Source: a virus
IMG/VR virus record: IMGVR_UViG_3300045912_000261
Span: 48,534 to 112,533 of that record
Strand: one strand, 5' to 3'
DNA: 64,000 nt
The position numbers and the translations under genes were made by a program. This document shows positions 1,240 through 64,000 of the stretch, in pieces; positions within the stretch are counted from its first letter, which is position 1; each line of letters opens with the position of its first letter. The notes beneath the pieces are model-generated. The model did not search any database, had not been told where the DNA came from, and saw only the letters and a program-made list of their open reading frames with translations.

Positions 1240-2963
1240 TACGGACTCACATTCCTTACGACCCTTGCCCTAAGGGTTCCTGAACCCAGATCCACTGTGC
1301 CCCCGGTCCGGTTCATGATCGTAACCCTGACCGTGTCTGCGGCGGAGACGAATCCGTGTAGAATCCAGGAGCCACCGTTAGTTTCCACCGACGAGTGGTT
1401 TACTTCCACGAAGTCCCCCACAGCGGCTCCCGTTGCCGTCAGAGTTGTTGAGGCCGACGCCCCATCAGCCAGCGATGGGGGGTCGTACGTAGCCGTGGCG
1501 ACGATCACGTCGGGGGTAAACAGCGTGGTGTCGACTGTTGTCGAACCCAGGAGGTTGCGGTAAGCCCTGTTGGAGGATGCTGTCGTAGTATGCCCTGCTG
1601 CCTTGTTGGCAAACGTCGTAACAGTGCCCACGAAGCGGTTGTCTGCGAACAGAATGCCCGAGCTTGAGCCCGTTGCTCCAGAGCCCTCGGCAAAGCGTAG
1701 GACGACGTTTGCAGTGTCGAAGGTATTCCGACGGAACCAGATACGGTGGCCCTTCTCCAGCTTGATCACACGGGTGTCACCGTGGCCAACATCGGTGAAT
1801 ACGTTGTCGTCGATCTCCACGTCCCGGGCGGACTGGCTTGCTGCGAAGCCGATAGAGACGCCATTCCACCAGTAGTCGAAGACGTTGCCTACGATCTTGA
1901 CGCCCCGTACGCCCTGGATCTGGAAGGGGTTATTGCCCAAGTAGCTCGCGTCGTCACGGCCTCCGTTGCAGTAGTTGTTGGCGAAGATGATGTCGTTGTG
2001 GACGGTAGAGTCAGTCGGGTCTTGTACGTGAGAGAAGAAGGCCGCACACCTTACGCTGTTGAAGACGTTGTGGGCAACTACGACCCCTTGGGTCTTAGTT
2101 GTTAGGTCCGCCTGCGTGGGGATAATGTGGTACGCAACAGCTCCAGCGGTGCCGCGGCACTTCTCGAAGTAGTTACCCACGATGCGGATGTTGCGAATGA
2201 CGGCGAAGGTTGAACCTGAGTTGGGCTCGATGTCGATTGTCCCAGGCATGTCCGTGCGCGTGCTGTTGAGGAAGGTGCATCCCTGGATTAGAACGTCCCG
2301 ACCATCAATGATTGTGATGGCGTTCCTGTTGTCTTGGTTGATCCCGTCGAAGCGGCAGCCGACGATCTTGATGTACCTGTTGTGTCTCTCCACTCCGGCA
2401 GAGTGCGAAGAGGCAAGGTACAAACCGTCAGCACGGTACCCTCGGAAGTAGACATTCTGGATCAGTACGTCGTCCACTGCTGAGAGCGACATTAGGTGGA
2501 CGTTTTGTCCCGTGGCAAACCCATCAACGTCTACGGTCCCACGGAGCTGGAGATCCCTGAAGACCAGGTTTCGCCGGTTGGTTGCAGGGTCAGCAGTTCC
2601 TCCGGTGCCTGGGTTGACCTTAATCAGGTACAGAGGGGCTGTGCCCGTACGCTGCTTGATGATGGAGCCCCAGCCCTCTCCCCGGAGAGTGACGCTGTCA
2701 GCAGCTACCTCAAGGTCTGAACAGGAGTAAGTACCGCGGGGGAAGAACACGGTACCACCGGCAACTTCGGCTGCGTCAATGGCTGCCTGCACCGCAGTGG
2801 TGTCGTTCGTTGTTCCGTCCCCCGTGGCACCGTAATCCTTCACATTGAAGACCTGGGCTACGGCTAGTGAATAGACGTGCTCTCCAAAGTCCTCCAGGTT
2901 TACGGCCGAGAGGGGTGTTGCTGTTGAGGGGCTATTCTGCCACCCATAGTTGGTCCAAGGCAC
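1239..2963 (-). CDS. Tailspike, pectate lyase 3-like right-handed beta-helix
   Basis: FNVKDYGATGDGTTNDTTAVQAAIDAA...GGTVFFPRGTY motif followed by many I.GN.F / IDIEPN beta-helix repeats. Confidence 0.85.
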   Translation of the reverse strand: MPWTNYGWQNSPSTATPLSAVNLEDFGEHVYSLAVAQVFNVKDYGATGDGTTNDTTAVQAAIDAAEVAGGTVFFPRGTYSCSDLEVAADSVTLRGEGWGSIIKQRTGTAPLYLIKVNPGTGGTADPATNRRNLVFRDLQLRGTVDVDGFATGQNVHLMSLSAVDDVLIQNVYFRGYRADGLYLASSHSAGVERHNRYIKIVGCRFDGINQDNRNAITIIDGRDVLIQGCTFLNSTRTDMPGTIDIEPNSGSTFAVIRNIRIVGNYFEKCRGTAGAVAYHIIPTQADLTTKTQGVVVAHNVFNSVRCAAFFSHVQDPTDSTVHNDIIFANNYCNGGRDDASYLGNNPFQIQGVRGVKIVGNVFDYWWNGVSIGFAASQSARDVEIDDNVFTDVGHGDTRVIKLEKGHRIWFRRNTFDTANVVLRFAEGSGATGSSSGILFADNRFVGTVTTFANKAAGHTTTASSNRAYRNLLGSTTVDTTLFTPDVIVATATYDPPSLADGASASTTLTATGAAVGDFVEVNHSSVETNGGSWILHGFVSAADTVRVTIMNRTGGTVDLGSGTLRARVVRNVSP

Positions 2964-4498
2964 TAGACCTCCTCAGCACCTTCCAGCAGAGCGCCAACCT
3001 CTGCGATCAGGATGTCCGCGTTTGTGGAGATGTCGCCAACCGCGTCACGAAGGTTCGCAGCCCTCTCCGGGGCGCCCTGCCCCTCGATCCAGCCGGCGTA
3101 CTCCGGGCCCTGAACCGTGCCCACACGGCCTCGCCACTGCGTTGCACGATGCATCACTCGGGACATGATGGCTTCCTTCAGCTCCCGGGAGATCACGGGC
3201 TTCGGAGGCGGCGGAGGAGCGTTCTCGATCATGAAGGACGCCGTCTTCGTGGTCGAGTTACCCTTGGTGTCCGTTGCCGTTACCTCTAGCGTGTATCTTC
3301 CGTTGGGGATTTGCGTGGAGTCGAAGGTTCCCTCGTACGGGCTGGCCGTGTCGTCGAAGGTAAGGTCGGCCCCATCGCCAAAGAGACGGAAGCTTACCTT
3401 GGCAACCCCTGAAGGGTCAGCTGCCGTTGCAGCGTACCTAACCTCCCCGGAGAGCGGGCTCTCGGTAGGTGCCGTGATCATCAGGTCCGGGCCCGTAGTG
3501 TCGGGCGGCGGAGGGGGCGGAGGTGGCGTGATGCCCGGACGCAGCTGCGTGGGACCGAGATCCTTACACGGAGAGGTATCCTTGAGGCGATAGTCCCCGT
3601 TTGAGGGGTCCATGTACTGCGGATCGACGTTACGGATGCCTTCCGTGGAGTAGCCGGTGCCCTTCAGGCGGCCTCCTACCATTCCGGAAGCGTTCCAGAC
3701 GTTAGTGTTGATGACCTTGTTACCGGTACCTGGGGTGCATCCCCACCACGACTCGACCAGGGCGCGAGAGCTCTTCCTGGAGTTAGTGAAGATTGAATCC
3801 ACCACAACCGAGTCAGAGCTGTTCTGGCAGCCCGAGAACCCTGTGGTAGAGTCAGTTGCTCCTGAGAAGGTGATCCCTCCGTTGACTCTGTCAATGGTGT
3901 TGCGGCGCATAATGATGCCGTCGCCGTCAGGGTAAAGGTGGAAGGCCCAACCGTCGGTCAGGTCGTAGAACAGGCAGTCCTCGACGATACCTGACGCAGT
4001 CGACTTCAGGTAGAGTGGGTGATCGTGGTCAGCCCGGGCAGGGTCCCCAATCTTGGTGAACCGGCACCGTGAGAAACGGAAGTTCCGGCACTTGATCGAG
4101 GCCTGACCCAGTGTTGTGTGGATCCGGCCGGGGAACCCGTTCGTGCGGTTGGTGAGGAGGCAGTCCTCCATCGTGAAGTCGTGGCACATCACTAGCATCG
4201 TGCCCGATGCCTGCGTGCTCACTCCCCCGTCGAGCCAGAAGCCTCGCATTACGATACCCGCGGCTCCGGATCCTACCGAGAAACGTCCCAGCACCTTGAC
4301 TGGAAGCCCCATATGGGCCTCTTTCCTGAGTGCCATTCCCTCAGTCCAGCCTTCAGCTTGGATGACGACCCTCTTGTTCAGGCTGAAGAAGCCTGATCCG
4401 AGGGAGTGGGTCCCAGCCTTCAACAGAAGAGTGTCTCCTGCGGAGGCTGCAGAGTACTTCGATGAAAATTGTCCCGGCGCTACTTCTAGTGTGGCCAT
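2963..4498 (-). CDS. Right-handed beta-helix protein with Pro linker and Ig-like domain (putative depolymerase)
   Basis: Start moved to ATG 4498 (GGAGGAG SD); beta-helix repeats, HDHPLYLK, DPQY..PSNGDYRL..TSP, poly-P, then Ig-like D.SGVAKV.F...PYEGTFDS...NGRYTLEVTATD.KGN. Confidence 0.75.
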   Translation of the reverse strand: MATLEVAPGQFSSKYSAASAGDTLLLKAGTHSLGSGFFSLNKRVVIQAEGWTEGMALRKEAHMGLPVKVLGRFSVGSGAAGIVMRGFWLDGGVSTQASGTMLVMCHDFTMEDCLLTNRTNGFPGRIHTTLGQASIKCRNFRFSRCRFTKIGDPARADHDHPLYLKSTASGIVEDCLFYDLTDGWAFHLYPDGDGIIMRRNTIDRVNGGITFSGATDSTTGFSGCQNSSDSVVVDSIFTNSRKSSRALVESWWGCTPGTGNKVINTNVWNASGMVGGRLKGTGYSTEGIRNVDPQYMDPSNGDYRLKDTSPCKDLGPTQLRPGITPPPPPPPPDTTGPDLMITAPTESPLSGEVRYAATAADPSGVAKVSFRLFGDGADLTFDDTASPYEGTFDSTQIPNGRYTLEVTATDTKGNSTTKTASFMIENAPPPPPKPVISRELKEAIMSRVMHRATQWRGRVGTVQGPEYAGWIEGQGAPERAANLRDAVGDISTNADILIAEVGALLEGAEEV

Positions 4499-4585
4499 CT
4501 CTCCTCCAGTGGGGTAGGCCTTATCGCTAGGATAGGTAGTAGAACTAGGTGCCCGAGTTGACGCGACGAGCACCTAGCCCACCCC

Positions 4586-5134
4586 TTACGACAGCGTGAT
4601 CGTGACCGTGAAGGTCCAGGTCGCAGCTGAAGTTTTCGTCCCCAGGGACTCAACCTTGCGGTTCAGCATCCGCCCGCCAGTTGAGGCATTGAACACGCCC
4701 CACTCCTGCCAAGCGAAGTTGGCGTCACCTGTGCCGAAGACACTCCGGAAGGTAATCGTCGCCGACCCGGAGGTGGTCCCATCCGTGTGCGTGGGGTACG
4801 TCGCCTCCATCGCCTTACGGACCTTGTTGGACGCTGCCTGCAGGTCCGTCTGGGTGGCTGCCGCCGCGGTCGTGGAGTCACCAACCCCGATGTGCGCGTT
4901 GGCGTTGTTGAAGTACGTCAGAGTCTGGCCACCGGTGGTGGTACCGTTCCCGATGAGGCTCTGCCAAATGTTGGAAGAGCCCCCGTAGACGAGGAGGTTC
5001 CCCTCGCGCTCGAGAACTTCGTACGGCTGTACCTCTCCTCGACGGATCTCCTCTTCGGTGACCTCGCCGTGGAACTTCTCCACCTTCCAGTGACACTGCC
5101 AGAGACCCCTCTCCTGGACAGGAGCGATCTCCAT
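4586..5134 (-). CDS. Tail fibre/collar-type structural protein
   Basis: HIGVGDSTTAAAATQTDLQ...ANFAWQEWGVFNA...MLNRKV motif typical of fibre-attachment proteins; AGGAGG SD before ATG 5134. Confidence 0.65.
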   Translation of the reverse strand: MEIAPVQERGLWQCHWKVEKFHGEVTEEEIRRGEVQPYEVLEREGNLLVYGGSSNIWQSLIGNGTTTGGQTLTYFNNANAHIGVGDSTTAAAATQTDLQAASNKVRKAMEATYPTHTDGTTSGSATITFRSVFGTGDANFAWQEWGVFNASTGGRMLNRKVESLGTKTSAATWTFTVTITLS

Positions 5135-5135
5135 G

Positions 5136-5363
5136 TCATGCCTCCTTTTCATCAATTACCCCGCCCGAGTCACCGGAGGTGATGTGGACGTGCTCGAAAT
5201 CCTGCAGAGCCCCTGCCTTCTTGAGCGCCCGAAGGTCGCTCTGAGAGAAGTCCTCTGCAGTAACTGGGGTTCCAGTCTCGAAGCGCCTCCCATCGGAGGT
5301 CTCGATAGTGGCCACGACGAGCAGGTTCTTGGGTGCTTTAGCTGCTTTATCCTTTTGTGCCAT
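5136..5363 (-). CDS. Small hypothetical protein
   Basis: 75-aa ORF with TAATG coupling to the endolysin. Confidence 0.55.
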   Translation of the reverse strand: MAQKDKAAKAPKNLLVVATIETSDGRRFETGTPVTAEDFSQSDLRALKKAGALQDFEHVHITSGDSGGVIDEKEA

Positions 5364-40752: not shown

Positions 40753-42918
40753 CTAGTACCTCACGCCTTCGTAAGTCTCAATGCCCAGGTCGTCCAGAGT
40801 GACGTAGTCCTCGCCGGGCATCGTAAGTACGCTGTGACCGAAGCGGGACAGGTACCCCACGACACCAGCAACGGAATCTGAGGTCTCCTTGAGCCCCGTG
40901 ATGCTCTGTCCGCCATCCTCTAGCTGCATGAGCTCCCTGGACGCCCAGCCATAGTTCATCACGCGGATACGACCCTCGTTGACCGCGAGCTGGAGGTCTG
41001 TGTAGGGCTGCTTGTCAACTGCCATAGGAGCTCCGGTTCCATAGGGGACCCCTGTGTTGGGATCGATCAGCGCGCCCACGGTTACGAGACCAGCCCTAAC
41101 AAACTTCTGTACCAGCGAGGCACTCTGGAAACCTGCCACACTAGCCGACGTGATGAGGAACCTCCGCACCTGGCGAAGGGCAATGATGAAGTCTGCACAT
41201 GCGCCTAGGTTTAGGTGCCCCACACGTGGCGCGATGACACGCATCACTAGGGGCACTTCGAAAAGGGGCACCTCAACTTCCATAGGCGCGTTCTCGATGA
41301 ACGTAACAACCCGCTTCCAGTTGGAGATGCGCCCCAGGGCAACAGACGCAATCCCGCCTCCGGCAGCTACCGAGAGGTGTGCATGCCACAGAATCTGCGC
41401 GTCGCCCTGGAACTCAGGCTTCAGGGCTGCCAGCAGAGTGTCCAAGGAGCTACCGTCTGCCACTAGCCACTCTGAGCGCTCTGCTGCGGTCTCCTCCGTG
41501 GTCTCAGTGTCGGAATCCGCATCTGGATCCCACTTGTCGGTAGCAAGAATGCTCGAGGAGTAGTCCCTAATGGCTCCTTCAGGGTTCAGCTGGGACTGGA
41601 GAACGAATGCCTCGTCGATCTTGCGGCCCTCTGGGAACAGCATCCGGCGGCCGGGACGCTCAGCGAGCATGATGCCTGCCATCGACATCGTGTCCACCTG
41701 GTCGTCATGGTCCCCGTTCGGGAAGTTCAAGAGCTCTTCCTCCCAGTCGGGAAGCCAGGGTGCCGAGTCGCGAGCATACACAGTCCCTGCTGCGAAGCGC
41801 GCAAGGATACTCGAGGCCCGGGAAACCTTGTCCTTGTCGGCAGGGATGGGTCTGACAGGGAGGCCCTCCCTAAGGGCTGTCTGCACCACACTCAGCTGGA
41901 AGCCGGTCTTCTCAATCCCGATGTACCCGGGGTGCCACTTCTGGTACACCCTATTGAGGAGGTTGATGTGATCCGGGCCAGCCATGCGGGATCGCTGCAC
42001 ATCTAGCACCAGGAGGTCAGCCTCGGGAGTCACCCCGAACACAGAAACGACAGAGTAGTCCGCTGTCTCCTTCAGGGATGTTGCAAGGTCGGTCGTGGCA
42101 AATCGGAAGAGGTCCTGGGGAGCTACGGTCTTTAGATCCCCATTGCTTTGTAGGAGCTGGTAGAATCCAGTGCTGGGGTCGACAGTGAAGTACTTGAACC
42201 ACTCAGGCTTGAACTGGTGGGCGCCAGGAGCGATGAACTGGGCCTCGTACTCTTGTGCAAACTTGTAGGGTCCCAGCTCGAGCTTAGCAGCCTCAATCTC
42301 GGTCTGGGGGATCTTGGGATTGTCAGCTGTGGGCCTCTGCCACCGCGCCCAATCACCCAGCTTCGGTACCCGTTCGAAGAGCTTCCAGAACCAGTTGCGT
42401 CCCTGGGGAGTGGAGATGAAGATGCACCAACCTTCACGGTCGGAGAGCGCGGGGCGCAGGGCCTCAGCCCAGGCGTCCTCTTTCACATAGGCAGCCTCGT
42501 CGATAACGAGGCCGTCTAGACCTGAGCCTCGAAGCGAGTCGGGGTTGTCAGTTGACCTCACAGTAATGCTGCCGCCACCAGGAAGAACGATCCGGCGCTC
42601 CACCTCACTCTTTTCGACCCAGGCTCCGATAAGAGCCTTCTTCAGGTCGCGCCAGATCTGGTTGGAGATGTTATAGGTGGGGCAAACCCACCAGACATTG
42701 CCTCCCTGGAGAGCACCAATTCGGGGGCTGTCTGCGGGGCCGTGACCCTGAACCACTGACATGAGACCCAAGACGGTCTTCCCCCAGCGGCGCCCACAGC
42801 AGCAAACCTTGAAGCGTGCAGGGGACTCTAACACTACGGCCTGGTGCTGCAGCGCTCTCGGCAGGATGATGCGCGGAACATCCTCCAAGTCTAGGGGTCG
42901 ACCAGCCGTTACGGGCAT
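40753..42918 (-). CDS. terL: Terminase large subunit with C-terminal extension
   Basis: GRRWGKT Walker A, LRG.GLDGLVIDEAA Walker B, ISTP.G.NWF, nuclease DLA...DYS...IEK...FPNGDHDDQVD. Confidence 0.95.
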   Translation of the reverse strand: MPVTAGRPLDLEDVPRIILPRALQHQAVVLESPARFKVCCCGRRWGKTVLGLMSVVQGHGPADSPRIGALQGGNVWWVCPTYNISNQIWRDLKKALIGAWVEKSEVERRIVLPGGGSITVRSTDNPDSLRGSGLDGLVIDEAAYVKEDAWAEALRPALSDREGWCIFISTPQGRNWFWKLFERVPKLGDWARWQRPTADNPKIPQTEIEAAKLELGPYKFAQEYEAQFIAPGAHQFKPEWFKYFTVDPSTGFYQLLQSNGDLKTVAPQDLFRFATTDLATSLKETADYSVVSVFGVTPEADLLVLDVQRSRMAGPDHINLLNRVYQKWHPGYIGIEKTGFQLSVVQTALREGLPVRPIPADKDKVSRASSILARFAAGTVYARDSAPWLPDWEEELLNFPNGDHDDQVDTMSMAGIMLAERPGRRMLFPEGRKIDEAFVLQSQLNPEGAIRDYSSSILATDKWDPDADSDTETTEETAAERSEWLVADGSSLDTLLAALKPEFQGDAQILWHAHLSVAAGGGIASVALGRISNWKRVVTFIENAPMEVEVPLFEVPLVMRVIAPRVGHLNLGACADFIIALRQVRRFLITSASVAGFQSASLVQKFVRAGLVTVGALIDPNTGVPYGTGAPMAVDKQPYTDLQLAVNEGRIRVMNYGWASRELMQLEDGGQSITGLKETSDSVAGVVGYLSRFGHSVLTMPGEDYVTLDDLGIETYEGVRY

Positions 42919-44562: not shown

Positions 44563-45105
44563 CTAGCTACTGCGCCAGTCGACTTCTTCGGGAAGCTTAT
44601 TGTGCTTCCGGCAGTTACAGGACTTGCAGGCTGGAGTTACATTCTCTAGCTCGTGCCGTCCACCCCTGCTGACGGGTACAATGTGATCTACTGTGACAGT
44701 ACCTGGAGTAAGAGTGATTTCGCAGTACGTACACTTCCAGCCCAAGAATTCACATAGCTCGAAAAAGTCCCTCAGGTCTAGATAGCCTCCAGCCTCAGTC
44801 CTACGCGCTCGGTAAGCATGCTGCCAGTTGCGCTGTTTCTCCCTGTTGCGCTCTAGGTACTCTTGCTGTTGCTCCCGAATCCAGTCCGCATTCAGTTTCC
44901 TATACTGGCGATTGTACTCTGAGATGTGCCCTTTGTGTTGTAAGCCCCAAGCTTTTCTACTGGGGTAGGATTCACCGTTGTGGCAAGGCTTACAGCGCCA
45001 AGAGCGCCCTTTGCGGCCGCTTCGGTTCTTGTAAAAGGCCCCAGGAGGCAAATCTTGACCACACTTTCCGCAGCGGAGCAACTCCTGTTCCCTTACAAGA
45101 TTCAA
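44563..45105 (-). CDS. HNH endonuclease with N-terminal zinc ribbon
   Basis: CGKC...CKPC; CTYC...VDHIVPVSRGGRH...NVTPACKSCN..K. Confidence 0.9.
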   Translation of the reverse strand: MNLVREQELLRCGKCGQDLPPGAFYKNRSGRKGRSWRCKPCHNGESYPSRKAWGLQHKGHISEYNRQYRKLNADWIREQQQEYLERNREKQRNWQHAYRARRTEAGGYLDLRDFFELCEFLGWKCTYCEITLTPGTVTVDHIVPVSRGGRHELENVTPACKSCNCRKHNKLPEEVDWRSS

Positions 45106-45990: not shown

Positions 45991-46100
45991 CGACCGATTT
46001 AGTCTCCGAGCCCAAACCGACTTGATCGGGCACCTGCCCCCCCCCCGTCCAAACCCTGCCTGTTTTGCCTGCCCCCTTGTAGGAGAAGAGACGGCTGCGC

Positions 46101-59943: not shown

Positions 59944-60351
59944 GTTTCATTTTATCCGATACCCGACATTTTATCAGCACAGACGAAAACATACTAAATA
60001 GGCCTTAATAGCACGAAAAACCTCAGGAAACCTCTCATAACTGATGTGAGCTGAAAAAACTGAAGAACCGAAACAAATTTTCTACTATATCGATTCTAGA
60101 TTGATCTTCATTCCTTCATCATACTTCCTTCATAACTCCATCATATTCTGGTCGATATAGTATATTCCTACCTTCCTACCTACGGAATGTCCTTCTCGAT
60201 TCTAATATAGGGCTCTTTTATTTCGGTTCTTCAGTTCTTTCATCTCCTATCATCAACCAGTAAGATCCCATAAGTTTTTGGATCTATCTAGTATGTTTTC
60301 GTCTCGTTTCGTCTCAGAAGATAGACTGATATCTCTCGGATGAAATGAAAC
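59944..60351. repeat. Long AT-rich imperfect inverted repeat (candidate origin or structured RNA)
   Basis: Nested complementary blocks 59944-59959/60336-60351, 59981-59996/60289-60304, 60048-60073/60221-60246, 60084-60093/60152-60161. Confidence 0.85.
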
Positions 60352-60463
60352 AGATACACCAGATTTTCGCGAGTCTGATACATCGGTCCACCTCCATTGG
60401 TAGAATCACATGCCAGGTGGACAGGTTGCAAGGTGGACAGGACACACTCAGAAAGAGGTAGCG

Positions 60464-60823
60464 ATGGACAACGTGAAGTACTCCGTTAGGGATCCGCTCA
60501 CGCCTAGCGAAGTTGCGGGGGAGACCCTGCGCTGGATCAACGGGATTCGGAAAGAGCTGGGTCTGCCCCGCCTCAGGAGGCTCCTGAAAGGCTTGCCTGG
60601 AAGTTCCTGGCTCTGTCCCGTGGCGAGATCTCTGGCCAAAGGACTGCCCAAGGGCCATTTGGTCAAGGTGACTCCTTCGTACGTGGTGATCGATTCGCCC
60701 ACCTTACAGACCGTGGGCCTTTCGTACGACACCATCCCTCCCGTGAAGGCTTTCATCAGGGAGTTCGACGGCGGAGGGTTCCAGGAATACAAACTGAAGC
60801 GTGGGAGAAAACTATGGTGGTGA
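60464..60823 (+). CDS. CP[VI]A-family protein, paralog 1
   Basis: WIN.IR...LP....L.KG......CPVA.S...FI..FD.G. Confidence 0.7.
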   Translation: MDNVKYSVRDPLTPSEVAGETLRWINGIRKELGLPRLRRLLKGLPGSSWLCPVARSLAKGLPKGHLVKVTPSYVVIDSPTLQTVGLSYDTIPPVKAFIREFDGGGFQEYKLKRGRKLWW

Positions 60824-61176
60824 TGTGGGTAGTAACGCGTGACCGGGACTACGAACTGCTGGGCGGGCAAGGGCTCATCCCCTCCCGAGTCGGAGTTGGG
60901 ATGACCGGGGAGGAAGTCCGCAAGACCATGGACGACGTTGCCTTTCCTCAGCGGACCGTGTTCGTCAAGGAAGGCCTGAAGCCAGAGGACGTCCCGCCCC
61001 CGACGGTCAGATTCCGCCTGCTTGACGGAGACGCCAACATCTACTACGAAGGTGTCGCAGCAGAGGATCTAGCCACCAGCAGCGACGACATCTGGTCCAT
61101 CCTCAAGTGGGGTGAGGCCGAAGCAGGCTGCACCACTCTCCAACTGCTCGAGGAGGGAACATGGCGAACCGTCTGA
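60814..61176 (+). CDS. Hypothetical protein (FRL.DGD..IYYEG...GCT)
   Basis: GGAG SD, overlap with upstream gene. Confidence 0.65.
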   Translation: MVVMWVVTRDRDYELLGGQGLIPSRVGVGMTGEEVRKTMDDVAFPQRTVFVKEGLKPEDVPPPTVRFRLLDGDANIYYEGVAAEDLATSSDDIWSILKWGEAEAGCTTLQLLEEGTWRTV

Positions 61177-61304
61177 GGCGAAAGACGCCAACGGCAGAGG
61201 AACTCTACCGGAGAGCAGACAAGCTGTTTACGGTAGCCCTCGTATTGCTGGTCGTGGCAGCAGTCATGGGGCTCGTAGCCCTCACCCTAGCACTGGTGGA
61301 GTAA
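61161..61304 (+). CDS. 47-aa membrane peptide
   Basis: AGGAGG SD; basic N-term then LFTVALVLLVVAAVMGLVALTLALV. Confidence 0.6.
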   Translation: MANRLRRKTPTAEELYRRADKLFTVALVLLVVAAVMGLVALTLALVE

Positions 61305-61570
61305 TGTCCGACCTTGAGTATTCCGTCCGGATCGAATACATCGATCCTAAGACCATCTTCGGCTTCCACACCGAAATGGGCACAGCTCGAGTAGACGGTC
61401 TCGAAATCCCGATCAGATCGACGATCGGCATGGGAGGCTCTCACATCTTCATCTACGGGAAAGATGGACGGCCTGGAGTGTCGGTCAACTTAGGTCCCCT
61501 GATCGAGCACCTCGTCAGGCTCCACCTAGGGGAAGGGAGTTCAGATGCCGCCACTCAGCCGGAGAAGTAA
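61304..61570 (+). CDS. Hypothetical protein
   Basis: TAATG overlap. Confidence 0.6.
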   Translation: MSDLEYSVRIEYIDPKTIFGFHTEMGTARVDGLEIPIRSTIGMGGSHIFIYGKDGRPGVSVNLGPLIEHLVRLHLGEGSSDAATQPEK

Positions 61571-61880
61571 GTCCTCTCTCGTACGGACAACCGTCGCTTG
61601 GGTCAACGAGGTCAGGGAGCAGATCGAACTCCCACCGATCAAGAGGCTGAGCAAGGGACACCGGAGACATCCGAACTACTGCCCTGTGGCACTCTCCATC
61701 GTGCGAGGAACTCAGTACAAGGCCAACGTGGAGCCCCTCCGCTTCTCAGTGTGGTCCGCAGAGGGCCTTTCGCCAGGAGTCCGGCTTCTCGCCTCCGGAG
61801 TCCCTCCCCATCAGGTGACCCGTTTCGTTGTCCTATTCGACCAAGGCGAGCCCAGCCTCGACTACCTGCAGGAGAAGTAA
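61545..61880 (+). CDS. CP[VI]A-family protein, paralog 2
   Basis: AWVNEVREQIELPPIKRLSKG...CPVALS...FVVLFDQG. Confidence 0.7.
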   Translation: MPPLSRRSKSSLVRTTVAWVNEVREQIELPPIKRLSKGHRRHPNYCPVALSIVRGTQYKANVEPLRFSVWSAEGLSPGVRLLASGVPPHQVTRFVVLFDQGEPSLDYLQEK

Positions 61881-61881
61881 G

Positions 61882-62205
61882 GTGACCAAAGAGGAAAGAC
61901 AGAGGCTCGAAAGAGACGTCATTGCCTGGATTAACCGAGTCAGGGAGCAACTTGATCTGCCTCCGATCAAGAAGCTGAGCAAGGGTCTCCCGAGGGAGAG
62001 CCAGGAGTGTCCGATTGCCATCTCACTAGCGCGAGGAAGTCGTTTTCACGCCGACGTAAGGGACACCATGTACAGGGTCTACGACGTCGACTACAGGCTT
62101 GTGTTGAAAGGGAGGTTGTCAAGGCCCGCAATGGCCTTCGTGAAGCTCTTCGACTTCCCTGACCTGAACAAGCCTCTGGACAGATACATGAAGCGGAAGC
62201 AGTAA
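61882..62205 (+). CDS. CP[VI]A-family protein, paralog 3
   Basis: AWINRVREQLDLPPIKKLSKG...CPIAIS...FVKLFD. Confidence 0.7.
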   Translation: MTKEERQRLERDVIAWINRVREQLDLPPIKKLSKGLPRESQECPIAISLARGSRFHADVRDTMYRVYDVDYRLVLKGRLSRPAMAFVKLFDFPDLNKPLDRYMKRKQ

Positions 62206-62342
62206 TGGGAATTGTCATTGGGCTAGCGGCCCTCTTCATACTCGTCCTTTTCAACCCCACACTGGCGATGATTCCTGCTGCTCTACTAGTCATCTGGTGG
62301 CTCTTTAGCGTGGGCCGCTGGGGCAAAATCCGCCGCTGGTAG
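62205..62342 (+). CDS. 45-aa membrane peptide
   Basis: TAATG overlap; MGIVIGLAALFILVLFNPTLAMIPAALLVIWWLFSVGRWGKIRRW. Confidence 0.55.
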   Translation: MGIVIGLAALFILVLFNPTLAMIPAALLVIWWLFSVGRWGKIRRW

Positions 62343-62356
62343 TGCCAGCACCAAGC

Positions 62357-62396
62357 CGACTCGGGCACCAAGCCGACTCGGGCACCTAATCCTACC
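62357..62396 (+). repeat. Dispersed motif, tandem pair
   Basis: CGACTCGGGCACCAAG and CGACTCGGGCACCTAATCCTACC. Confidence 0.8.
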
Positions 62397-62470
62397 AGCA
62401 GGATCACATGCCACGCATGCCACGCATGCCACGCATGTCGGGTGGACAGGTGGACGGGCCGGCGGTCCTC

Positions 62471-62500
62471 TTGATTTAAGCCTGATCCTTAGGTGATAAT
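62471..62500 (+). promoter_or_regulatory. Putative sigma70-like promoter
   Basis: TTGATT-N18-GATAAT. Confidence 0.55.
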
Positions 62501-62541
62501 ATAGAAACAGACTAGACTAGACAATATCACCGGAGGAAACG

Positions 62542-62919
62542 TTGCCGAAGGCGTTCGTAGGAGACGATGGGCAGCTCTACAAAGCATGTCCGCAGTGCAT
62601 TAAGGACGAAATGGCAGTCTTCCCAACCCTGGATAAGGAGGAGGCAACCCTTAGGGTAACTGTGCTAGCAGAGGACAACTTCTGTGCTAGCTCATATACC
62701 TCAGACGGCTTCCAACCTTGGTGTAAAGCTCATGTGCACGAGGCCAACAAGAGGCGTCAGCAGGAACTTGATCCTGCGGAAAGGGAGAGGAGGAAAGCAC
62801 GCCAGAGGGAAAACGCCAAGAGACACAGGGAAGCCCTCCGCGCAGCGGCTTCCAAGAAGAAAGCCTCCCTTGAGGCTCCTGATGACGTAGGTGGGTTGAT
62901 TCCTCCCCCAAATGAGTAA
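62542..62919 (+). CDS. Zinc-ribbon protein resembling the N-terminus of the HNH endonucleases
   Basis: CPQC...F.....DGFQPWCKAH then basic helix; GGAGG SD, TTG start. Confidence 0.6.
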   Translation: MPKAFVGDDGQLYKACPQCIKDEMAVFPTLDKEEATLRVTVLAEDNFCASSYTSDGFQPWCKAHVHEANKRRQQELDPAERERRKARQRENAKRHREALRAAASKKKASLEAPDDVGGLIPPPNE

Positions 62920-63388
62920 TCTCACCGTAGGCACCGTAAACACAGTGTGCGCCCGGGGTAGACTGTTTCCTACTTCAATTTTCCTGCCCGACAACCCCGA
63001 AGATGTCTCCCGCAGGAAGCTCCGGAAGTTTTGCCGGCAGAATCTAGCTGCCCTCGCTTTCCTCTCTTGGCTCTACCAAGGCGTTGTACCACGTGACCTT
63101 AAGTTCAGGGCGCTGAGCTCCCTGGATAGCTACCGAGTCTCACGTGGCCGAACGGCACTGACCCACACCCTAGCGGGGATGACTGCCTGCATACTTCTCT
63201 CTCAAGCGTCCCTTCTCGTACACGTCCTCGTTACCGGCCGCTCTTGGTTCTTGGGGCTGATTGCGGTCCCATTCATAGGATGGTCGGTGTACATGCTGCG
63301 CTGCTGCCTCGAAGAGGCCTCAAGGAAGAAGGCTCTGGCACAGAAGTACCTGGAGGAGTACAAAGACAACATGAACAACTGGTTCTAG
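62912..63388 (+). CDS. Membrane protein
   Basis: Two to three hydrophobic segments. Confidence 0.55.
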   Translation: MSNLTVGTVNTVCARGRLFPTSIFLPDNPEDVSRRKLRKFCRQNLAALAFLSWLYQGVVPRDLKFRALSSLDSYRVSRGRTALTHTLAGMTACILLSQASLLVHVLVTGRSWFLGLIAVPFIGWSVYMLRCCLEEASRKKALAQKYLEEYKDNMNNWF

Positions 63389-63399
63389 GAGGAGAGGCC

Positions 63400-63621
63400 A
63401 TGACAGCAAGCCCTGAGAGACCATCACCCACACCTTCGGCAACGATCAGTAGGATCGAGTGGCCGCCAATGGTCCACTTGGACCAAGAGGACCTACTGAG
63501 GATCCGTATCGCCCTCGAGGCAATGATCGCCGGGAACAGGCACTCCCCTGCCGGAGTGGCCGCCAACGAAGGCTTCGACGCCACCCTGGACAAGATCTAC
63601 AGGTATCTCTCAAACCGCTGA
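63400..63621 (+). CDS. Hypothetical protein
   Basis: AGGAGG SD; ends where the array begins. Confidence 0.6.
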   Translation: MTASPERPSPTPSATISRIEWPPMVHLDQEDLLRIRIALEAMIAGNRHSPAGVAANEGFDATLDKIYRYLSNR

Positions 63622-64000
63622 GACTCTCCATCCCCACTCCCTCCGAAGCGACAACCCTTCTCCTCTCAGCCCGAAGCGACATTCCGACTCGCTGCTCTCC
63701 GAGGTGACATCCCGAACCGGCCCTTTCGGCCCTCAGCGACTGACCACCCCCACTCCGCCCGAAGCGACAATCCGCGTCCTTTCAGACCGACGCGACATAT
63801 CACACCGAGTCCGTCCGACGCGACACGCCTCGTCGTGTCCTCTCATCTCGACCCAAAGCGACTCTCCGTGCCACCTCTCGTCGAAGCGACGTTCCCGACC
63901 ATCTCCCGTCCCGTCGGCCCCTCCCGAAGCGACTCACCGAGCCGGCTCGAAGCGACATCCCGTATCGCGTCGGTCCAGCCAAGCCGAAGCGACAAATCGT
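63620..64000. repeat. Non-coding array GCGAC-(NNNYC)n-GAA, truncated by window end
   Basis: 12 copies of CCGAAGCGAC-like anchor, mostly 28-bp period, unique spacers built from pentamers ending in YC. Confidence 0.85.

Follow-up and report, generated by a model that had tools for sequence, protein, structure and literature searches.

A punctuated array of five-nucleotide repeats at the end of an assembled phage contig probably comprises a set of short guide-RNA genes belonging to a cytosine-phased subtype of VIPR. In the text of the preprints that describe it, this class consists of a lone viral Cas7-like RAMP protein beside arrays of pentamers (bioRxiv 10.64898/2026.04.26.720920,.720927; 10.64898/2026.10.15.759431). 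The array lies on the + strand at 63620..64000 of the window, by which is meant the whole stretch of 64,000 nucleotides analysed, and holds 13 units, the last one cut at the contig end. The window corresponds to bases 48534-112533 of a 112,533-bp IMG/VR record, which carries a linear classification and an estimated completeness of about 90%, and the DNA derives from hot-spring microbial-mat metagenomes.

Each unit opens with G[CT]GAC, runs on through 3, 4, 6 or 7 NNNYC pentamers and closes with GAA (variants GAG, GAC and AAA). The original prediction, made from the letters alone, had given twelve anchors with their periods, all of which were found in the sequence; ahead of them stands a first unit, a degenerate copy with GAGAC that runs from 63620 and overlaps the TGA stop of the ORF at 63400-63621, so that the array does begin at that stop, as proposed. 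The twelve complete units measure 28 (seven of them), 32, 38, 43, 23 and 37 nt. Ten belong to the length class 3 mod 5, in agreement with the proposed stepping of lengths by five, and the two off-class units (32 and 37 nt) contain one 1-nt indel apiece, which shifts the phase. When the 56 pentamers are phased on the anchor, 55 have a pyrimidine at position 4 and 52 a cytosine at position 5, and all four bases occur at positions 1-3. This 5-nt YC phasing is significant against shuffled sequence: among 100,000 within-unit shuffles the top score was 40/56 cytosines at position 5, and the observed value was never reached. The suggested autocorrelation check gave a cytosine peak at lag 5 across the array, with others at 23 and 28. 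At least nine of ten phased cytosines are found at 18 places in the whole 112.5-kb contig, 13 of them within the array, and seven of the eight exact copies of GAAGCGAC on the contig + strand also lie there. The array is genuine, its grammar and phase lying far beyond chance.

The argument that a 28-nt unit, not being divisible by three, cannot be coding is sound, yet the variable triplets behave like codons of a target. Translation in 5-nt steps was rejected, a stop codon being the first codon of unit 4, as was a G-quadruplex or i-motif, for which the G or C tracts are insufficiently regular. Neither strand of the array RNA folds better than shuffles (z-scores +0.92 and -0.42), Rfam holds no match for the array, and promoter and terminator scans around it gave nothing informative. 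Between units, no conserved structured 3′ tail was found, only GCGAC and a weak pyrimidine ahead of it being conserved.

The same grammar recurs elsewhere. An anchor-only search of IMG/VR (two exact GAAGCGAC copies, 20 nt apart) returned unrelated simple repeats only; a pattern encoding the grammar (GCGAC, four NNNYC pentamers and GAAGCGAC) led to a metagenome contig, L035, which L042 overlaps, and a looser grammar pattern gave 31 loci in IMG/VR, of which 18 are true arrays with 5-45 anchors each. The grammar GCGAC + (NNNCC)n + NNN is thereby found in 19 other viral or metagenomic loci (18 from IMG/VR and L035/L042). Across this family, unit lengths are 3 mod 5 in 214 of 293 cases, cytosine stands at position 4 in 83% and at position 5 in 97% of 1074 pentamers, and conservation beyond the phase is limited to GCGAC and the pyrimidine that precedes it; there are 2-10 repeats per guide in the family as against 3-7 in the window. 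By its grammar the window array can be assigned to this cytosine-phased family, with a looser position 4, where T occurs in 39% of window pentamers compared with 9% in the array family. In L035 (with L042), a 23-unit array at 4499-5175 of the reversed locus is flanked by a 126-aa ORF and by an HNH gene, the ATG of which directly follows the last GCGAC. No RAMP gene was found within the 8.7 kb available for that locus, and its array may be a second solo array.

Clustering of the flanking ORFs yielded a single conserved protein family of 220-260 aa, which a profile search of six-frame translations placed in 16 of the 19 loci; L035/L042 and two fragments of <2 kb make up the other three. The gene directly adjoins an array, on its upstream or its downstream side, or stands between two arrays, always on the strand on which the array reads NNNCC (16/16 loci), and in several loci the array ends 0-60 nt from the gene's ribosome-binding site. 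The protein has an invariant GG.P near its N-terminus and a C-terminal GhGxxRSxGxGKF, which is the glycine loop of RAMP proteins. There are weak matches to the Pfam Cas6 C-terminal model (two members) and to Csm4 (PDB profile search), and hhalign pairs its C-terminal 53 columns with the G-loop region of SUSP1 Vipr (E 0.0011, probability 20%). An AlphaFold2 model (mean pLDDT 79.3, pTM 0.69) was matched by Foldseek to Cmr4, Csm3 and type VII Cas7 (best E 2e-7, probability 1.00), with 131 chains at E<=0.001; by its predicted fold, the family protein is a stand-alone Cas7-like RAMP. At least 150 homologues occur in metagenomes, nearly all of them unnamed, two being labelled Csm4/RAMP by JGI. No vap-like partner is conserved among the flanking ORFs of the family. 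The likeness to VIPR arrays with another grammar, which the original prediction had drawn, is thus borne out by 19 further loci and a Cas7-like RAMP adjoining 16 of them, and the array together with its RAMP-linked relatives is, as judged from sequence, a VIPR-type system of different grammar. The remark that no RAMP gene was visible in the window holds for the whole contig, on which the family HMM at maximum sensitivity gave a best E of 1.9 and a motif scan found no G-loop.

The proposal that variable bases be joined and compared with genomes bore fruit for one unit. When the three variable bases of successive pentamers are joined with zero gaps, unit 9 (63886..63928, + strand; 43 nt, seven pentamers) gives a 21-mer that reads as the T-loop, the 3′ strand of the T-stem, the 3′ strand of the acceptor stem and the discriminator base of a tRNA. 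The exact 21-mer has three matches in 185,579 GTDB species genomes (a Longimicrobium, an Aquimonas and an alphaproteobacterial MAG, from three phyla), where about 0.3 would be expected for a random 21-mer; a 5-nt complement of the T-stem strand precedes the match in all three, and in L050 the Rfam tRNA model covers the match as positions 53-73 of a tRNA gene. Unit 9, decoded in this way, spells a tRNA 3′ end, and a chance agreement is very unlikely because the match starts at the T-loop and lies in the appropriate stem context. The third base of each triplet would be informative in this guide, since all seven third bases match. The matching gene in L050 (5772-5907, - strand) carries a 66-nt insert in its anticodon loop and the neighbouring tRNA-Trp gene a 63-nt insert; the sites in L051 and L052 that match unit 9 were not called as tRNAs. 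The 21-mer was absent from IMG/VR and matched no hot-spring genome.

The other 12 units were of insufficient length for placement or yielded no match, leaving one of 13 with an identified match; most guides in the window array have 12 variable bases, which gives them little specificity. Unit 7 (63820..63857, + strand; 38 nt) has six clean pentamers and its decoded 18-mer reads TSVLID, for which there is no convincing target: IMG/VR holds one match against about three expected by chance, and this was rejected as lying out of codon phase and spanning a start codon. Guides read with 0-3 skipped bases matched their own genome and the related contig at chance level only, and a comparison among all fetched loci gave two cross-matches with 2-3 mismatches, which are unconvincing.

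Family-wide, the triplets of 138 clean non-redundant units are fitted best, among six frames, by in-frame sense codon usage; sense is preferred to antisense by 84 of 125 units, and the most frequent triplets are those that GC-rich genomes favour as codons. In-frame stops number 9 against 13.2 expected (antisense, 6 against 11.3), a deficit that is not significant alone. Two guides of L064, both read post hoc, spell conserved motifs in frame. One reads MPKTEEL, the GGMPKTE[DE]L motif of the family RAMP, and differs from L064's own RAMP gene at 7 of 21 bases, almost all of them wobble positions. The other reads NHKPPIRGTD, and a wobble-masked search (about 0.2 matches expected) found one in-frame match, in a D5/P4-type primase-helicase gene, which would be a homologue of the target rather than the target, because only 2 of 10 third bases agree. 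The loci concerned are the L064 array at 2587-3654 of the oriented locus and L085:784-1272:-. From these readings, rival VIPR systems and satellite-like replicons are candidate targets of the L064 guides, and the motifs support codon-phased guides rather than identified targets.

How far the system departs from VIPR as published deserves some care. The class dates from 2026, and most of the arrays behind its description are of the GGY/NN kind and come from phages of enterobacteria and Pseudomonas. In the SUSP1 VIPR filament one protomer is reported to bind per repeat, with the fixed bases sequestered and the variable ones presented, and solo vrRNA arrays are reported from vipr-less phages of the SUSP1 family, with the protein supplied in trans (VIPR preprints, main text: 10.64898/2026.04.26.720920,.720927; 10.64898/2026.10.15.759431). 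The text further mentions non-canonical units (NNNGG, YNNNG, NNNNG; GAC/NN, CAC/NN, WGT/NN, TGH/NN) and ‘staggered’ arrays in which one vrRNA's end is the next one's start (10.64898/2026.04.26.720920; 10.64898/2026.10.21.760802). Our re-derivation of the locus in Escherichia phage SUSP1, the type II reference, located Vipr through its flanking YNNGG arrays, with YNNGG on the gene strand. The window array and its family share with VIPR a viral setting and a tandem 5-nt repeat in which some positions are fixed and others hypervariable; the relatives alone share the stand-alone G-loop Cas7-like RAMP, with arrays before and/or after its gene. A 3-nt, codon-sized target period, reported for VIPR in the preprint text, is suggested here by one decoded unit and by the family triplets; an L064 guide spells a motif of the vipr gene itself; and arrays lacking a vipr gene are also known in VIPR as the preprints describe it.

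The differences are no less clear. Canonical GGY/NN (YNNGG) stands on the gene strand, whereas here YC or CC stands on the strand of the neighbouring genes and GR or GG on the opposite one. In the preprint text the SUSP1 type has two variable bases per repeat, 9-16 repeats per guide, a leader and a structured tail of roughly 40 nt, and a one-base skip in target matching; in the array and its family there are three variable bases, 3-7 repeats (family 2-10), GCGAC plus about 3 nt, and, in the decoded unit 9, a match with no skip. The family RAMP is also longer than SUSP1 Vipr (220-260 against 195 aa), only its C-terminal third aligns, and from the assembled contig the vipr gene is missing altogether. 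Neither GCGAC nor its complement is named in the running text of the preprints, which is equally silent on a CC-based unit and on zero-skip matching, and the cytosine-phased family may be one of the seven VIPR types listed there.

The original prediction had also set the array apart from CRISPR and TIGR, and this holds: the conserved element is 5-8 nt long, the periods are 5 and 28 nt, and no cas or Tas protein was found. With Class 1 CRISPR systems (types I, III and VII), the family shares a Cas7-like fold in its RAMP and a short conserved tag at the guide border, and probably also one protomer per fixed guide step, with lengths stepping by the protomer footprint. The step is 6 nt in CRISPR and 5 nt here, however, and the fixed bases here lie inside the guide; moreover, units of 23-43 nt take the place of repeats of 23-50 nt with their hairpin. 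No cas1/cas2, Cas6 or large subunit was found nearby, and no Cas family among the scanned ORFs (Pfam, PHROGs). TIGR-Tas is likewise a compact non-CRISPR guide array of mobile elements but has, in the text available on it, an 18-nt period and a Nop-domain Tas protein, which Pfam and PHROGs did not detect among the neighbouring ORFs. GCGAC presumably resembles the 8-nt handle of Thermus CRISPR, and an idea of mimicry on that basis was dropped.

The phage is a myovirus, with a T4-type large terminase, a Mu-gpT-like capsid protein and a tail sheath encoded on the - strand of window 1-45917, and a + strand run of small orphan genes from about 46000 up to the array. Its relatives are distant: TerL finds one IMG/VR fragment (35% identical) and matches in isolated phages that are all <60% identical, and the DNA of 60000-64000 matched none of 50,697 phage records. 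For the ten ORFs upstream of the array, Pfam and PHROGs were uninformative, and no counterpart of any of them adjoins an array at another locus. The last of them, at 63400..63621 (+), encodes 73 aa behind a strong ribosome-binding site, matches no protein family and has no relatives in IMG/VR; its neighbour at 62912..63388 (+) encodes 158 aa with a hydrophobic C-terminal half, and likewise has no relatives in IMG/VR. Next upstream, a 125-aa protein (62542-62919, +) combines a CxxC...C...H cluster with a long tail rich in Arg/Lys, features that suggest binding to nucleic acid; it has no Pfam or PHROGs family. Further upstream, the ORFs at 61545-61880 and 61882-62205 (+) are adjacent paralogues with a common motif, LPPIK[KR]LSKG...CP[IV]A, and one of the two weakly matches an unnamed PHROG.

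Reading past 64000, as had been suggested, is precluded by the record, the window's last base being also that of the contig: the array is truncated by the assembly. An exact 30-mer from the array end had no match in JGI metagenomes, where the source record may be masked. The sequencing runs listed as containing the stretch include none of RNA. Logan contigs from four runs (DNA), compared over 62500-64000, show why the assembly stops. In the source run, the array-bearing piece (62929-64000) has a depth of 9 and ends at the window's own last base, no other Logan contig reaching the array; the main form of the population, represented by a 52-kb contig, has 62958 fused directly to base 56 of the record, with 8 nt of microhomology at the junction. 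The assembled part of the strain-variable cassette therefore spans 62959..64000 (+), at depth 9 against about 26 in the flanking genome, and its branch point at 62958 lies 47 nt inside the 158-aa ORF. At the junction of the main form, the first 15 codons of ORF 62912 are fused to another reading frame. The sequence of 62918-62932 recurs as contig bases 1-15. A third form, in two further runs of the source sample, leaves the window sequence after 63293, inside the same ORF. The end of the early region is a hotspot of strain variation, and about one phage in three in the population has the array cassette, the far side of which is unassembled. Because the main form joins 62958 to base 56, the genome closes on itself, and because the circle closes there, the contig end is an assembly break and no genome end; T7-type primase sites or terminal repeat arrays were rejected on this ground. 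An HNH endonuclease gene (44563-45102, -) adjoins the large terminase gene (40753-42915, -), an arrangement known from cos-type packaging, and this pairing argues for true genome ends near 46000 rather than at the contig ends.

By analogy with the SUSP1 filament, the array would be transcribed and bound by one RAMP protomer per 5-nt repeat, each gripping the fixed pair (YC as written here, GR in the complementary strand) and displaying the three variable bases. The earlier proposal of gapped guides for a polymerising protein, one subunit per 5 nt, draws support from the RAMP-linked relatives, in which the protein would bind the array RNA. GCGAC, 8 nt with the preceding GAA, would be the border between guides, and because it marks those borders guide lengths would step by 5 nt. 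Successive triplets of a unit would then address a contiguous target, with 5 nt of guide spent per 3 nt (one codon) of target, such that each guide would cover 9-21 contiguous bases, or as many as 30 in the relatives. Whether they belong to the host or to competing mobile elements, targets bound in this way would be silenced. The partner protein could be encoded in the unassembled remainder of the cassette, since the order of array then RAMP gene occurs in several relatives and the gene may lie beyond the assembly; alternatively, a co-infecting element could supply it in trans to a solo array. Carriage by about a third of the population is as expected for a conflict module.

Two observations favour the C-rich strand as the RNA: it is co-oriented with the RAMP gene throughout the 16 loci and with the flanking genes both here and in L035, and arrays abut start codons. 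Against it, published VIPR RNAs, as given in the preprint text, are all G-based, and one of the variants listed there, NNNGG, corresponds to the family unit read as its reverse complement, a form that only an antisense transcript would have. The choice is between an RNA made from the strand opposite to that of the neighbouring genes and a new grammar. Co-transcription of RAMP gene and array is not assured, because in L066 a terminator-like hairpin with a T-run (1770-1844 of the oriented locus) stands after the RAMP gene and ahead of the array, which may have its own promoter; just past that array, at about 2354-2450, lies a terminator-like hairpin on the opposite strand.

Other explanations must be weighed against a guide-RNA array. 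The cassette may be a stranded, decaying remnant, in which the RAMP gene has been lost and the array idles as passive cargo of a mostly deleted segment, as one might suppose from the lack of a RAMP gene in 112.5 kb, the minority status of the cassette (depth 9 against 26), a main form that resembles a deletion across 8-nt microhomology, the position 4 looser than in the family and the phase-breaking indels of two units. Yet 52 phased cytosines and 55 pyrimidines among 56 pentamers are too clean for unconstrained drift, the contig end cuts the array so that a partner gene may merely be unassembled, and working solo arrays are published from vipr-less phages; we consider decay unlikely. A wholly different possibility is that the array acts as DNA, with GCGAC as a binding site for packaging, replication origin or partition functions and the phased cytosines structural. 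Short, irregularly spaced repeats near a contig end do resemble iteron or pac arrays, and the HNH-terminase arrangement implies a defined packaging machinery, but that region is 18 kb distant, and the contig end is an assembly break, since the main form closes the circle by joining 62958 to base 56. Such an element does not explain why three bases in each repeat are hypervariable while the 5-nt phase is strict, nor does it explain the 5-nt steps in unit length, the codon-like triplets, the tRNA end in unit 9 and the constant linkage to a Cas7-like RNA-binding fold, and is highly improbable.

The primary sites of Rho recognise YC dinucleotides in unstructured RNA that is rich in C and poor in G, and the array might be a platform for a YC-binding host factor: a loading site or sponge for Rho that affects transcription termination after the early genes. 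Cytosine makes up 43% of the + strand RNA, which folds no better than its shuffles, and the array follows early genes on the same strand. Rho requires neither a strict 5-nt phase nor conserved punctuation, however, and neither the RAMP linkage in the family nor the information in the variable triplets would be accounted for; we give this reading even less credence than a DNA-level element. Within the guide-RNA reading, a more specific version can be put forward only tentatively, and we regard it as doubtful: a distinct VIPR subtype, in which a C-rich RNA co-transcribed with the RAMP gene is held by its CC (YC) and its codon triplets are read with zero skip, which would amount to a second and denser code for recognition guided by a RAMP. 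One guide would be directed against a tRNA 3′ end, and the phage, a lytic hot-spring myovirus, would turn a solo array on rival integrating elements or on the tRNA. The 3′ end of tRNA genes is the classic attachment site of integrative elements.

The VIPR class is already published; the novelty here lies in the grammar with its punctuation, in a dense triplet code, in a guide that spells a tRNA end and in an orphan state that varies within the population. The window array and roughly 20 related loci have a compact layout of many short guides separated by 5-nt punctuation, and a tRNA 3′ end is a type of target that goes unmentioned in the main text of the preprints. The 16 loci with co-oriented RAMP gene and array, together with the two arrays that are RAMP-less in the DNA at hand, constitute a test set for the guide strand. 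Zero-skip matching, if true at the bench, would widen the rules by which a Cas7-like filament presents its guide and would provide a denser programmable code, in a system whose array cassette is borne by only part of a natural phage population.
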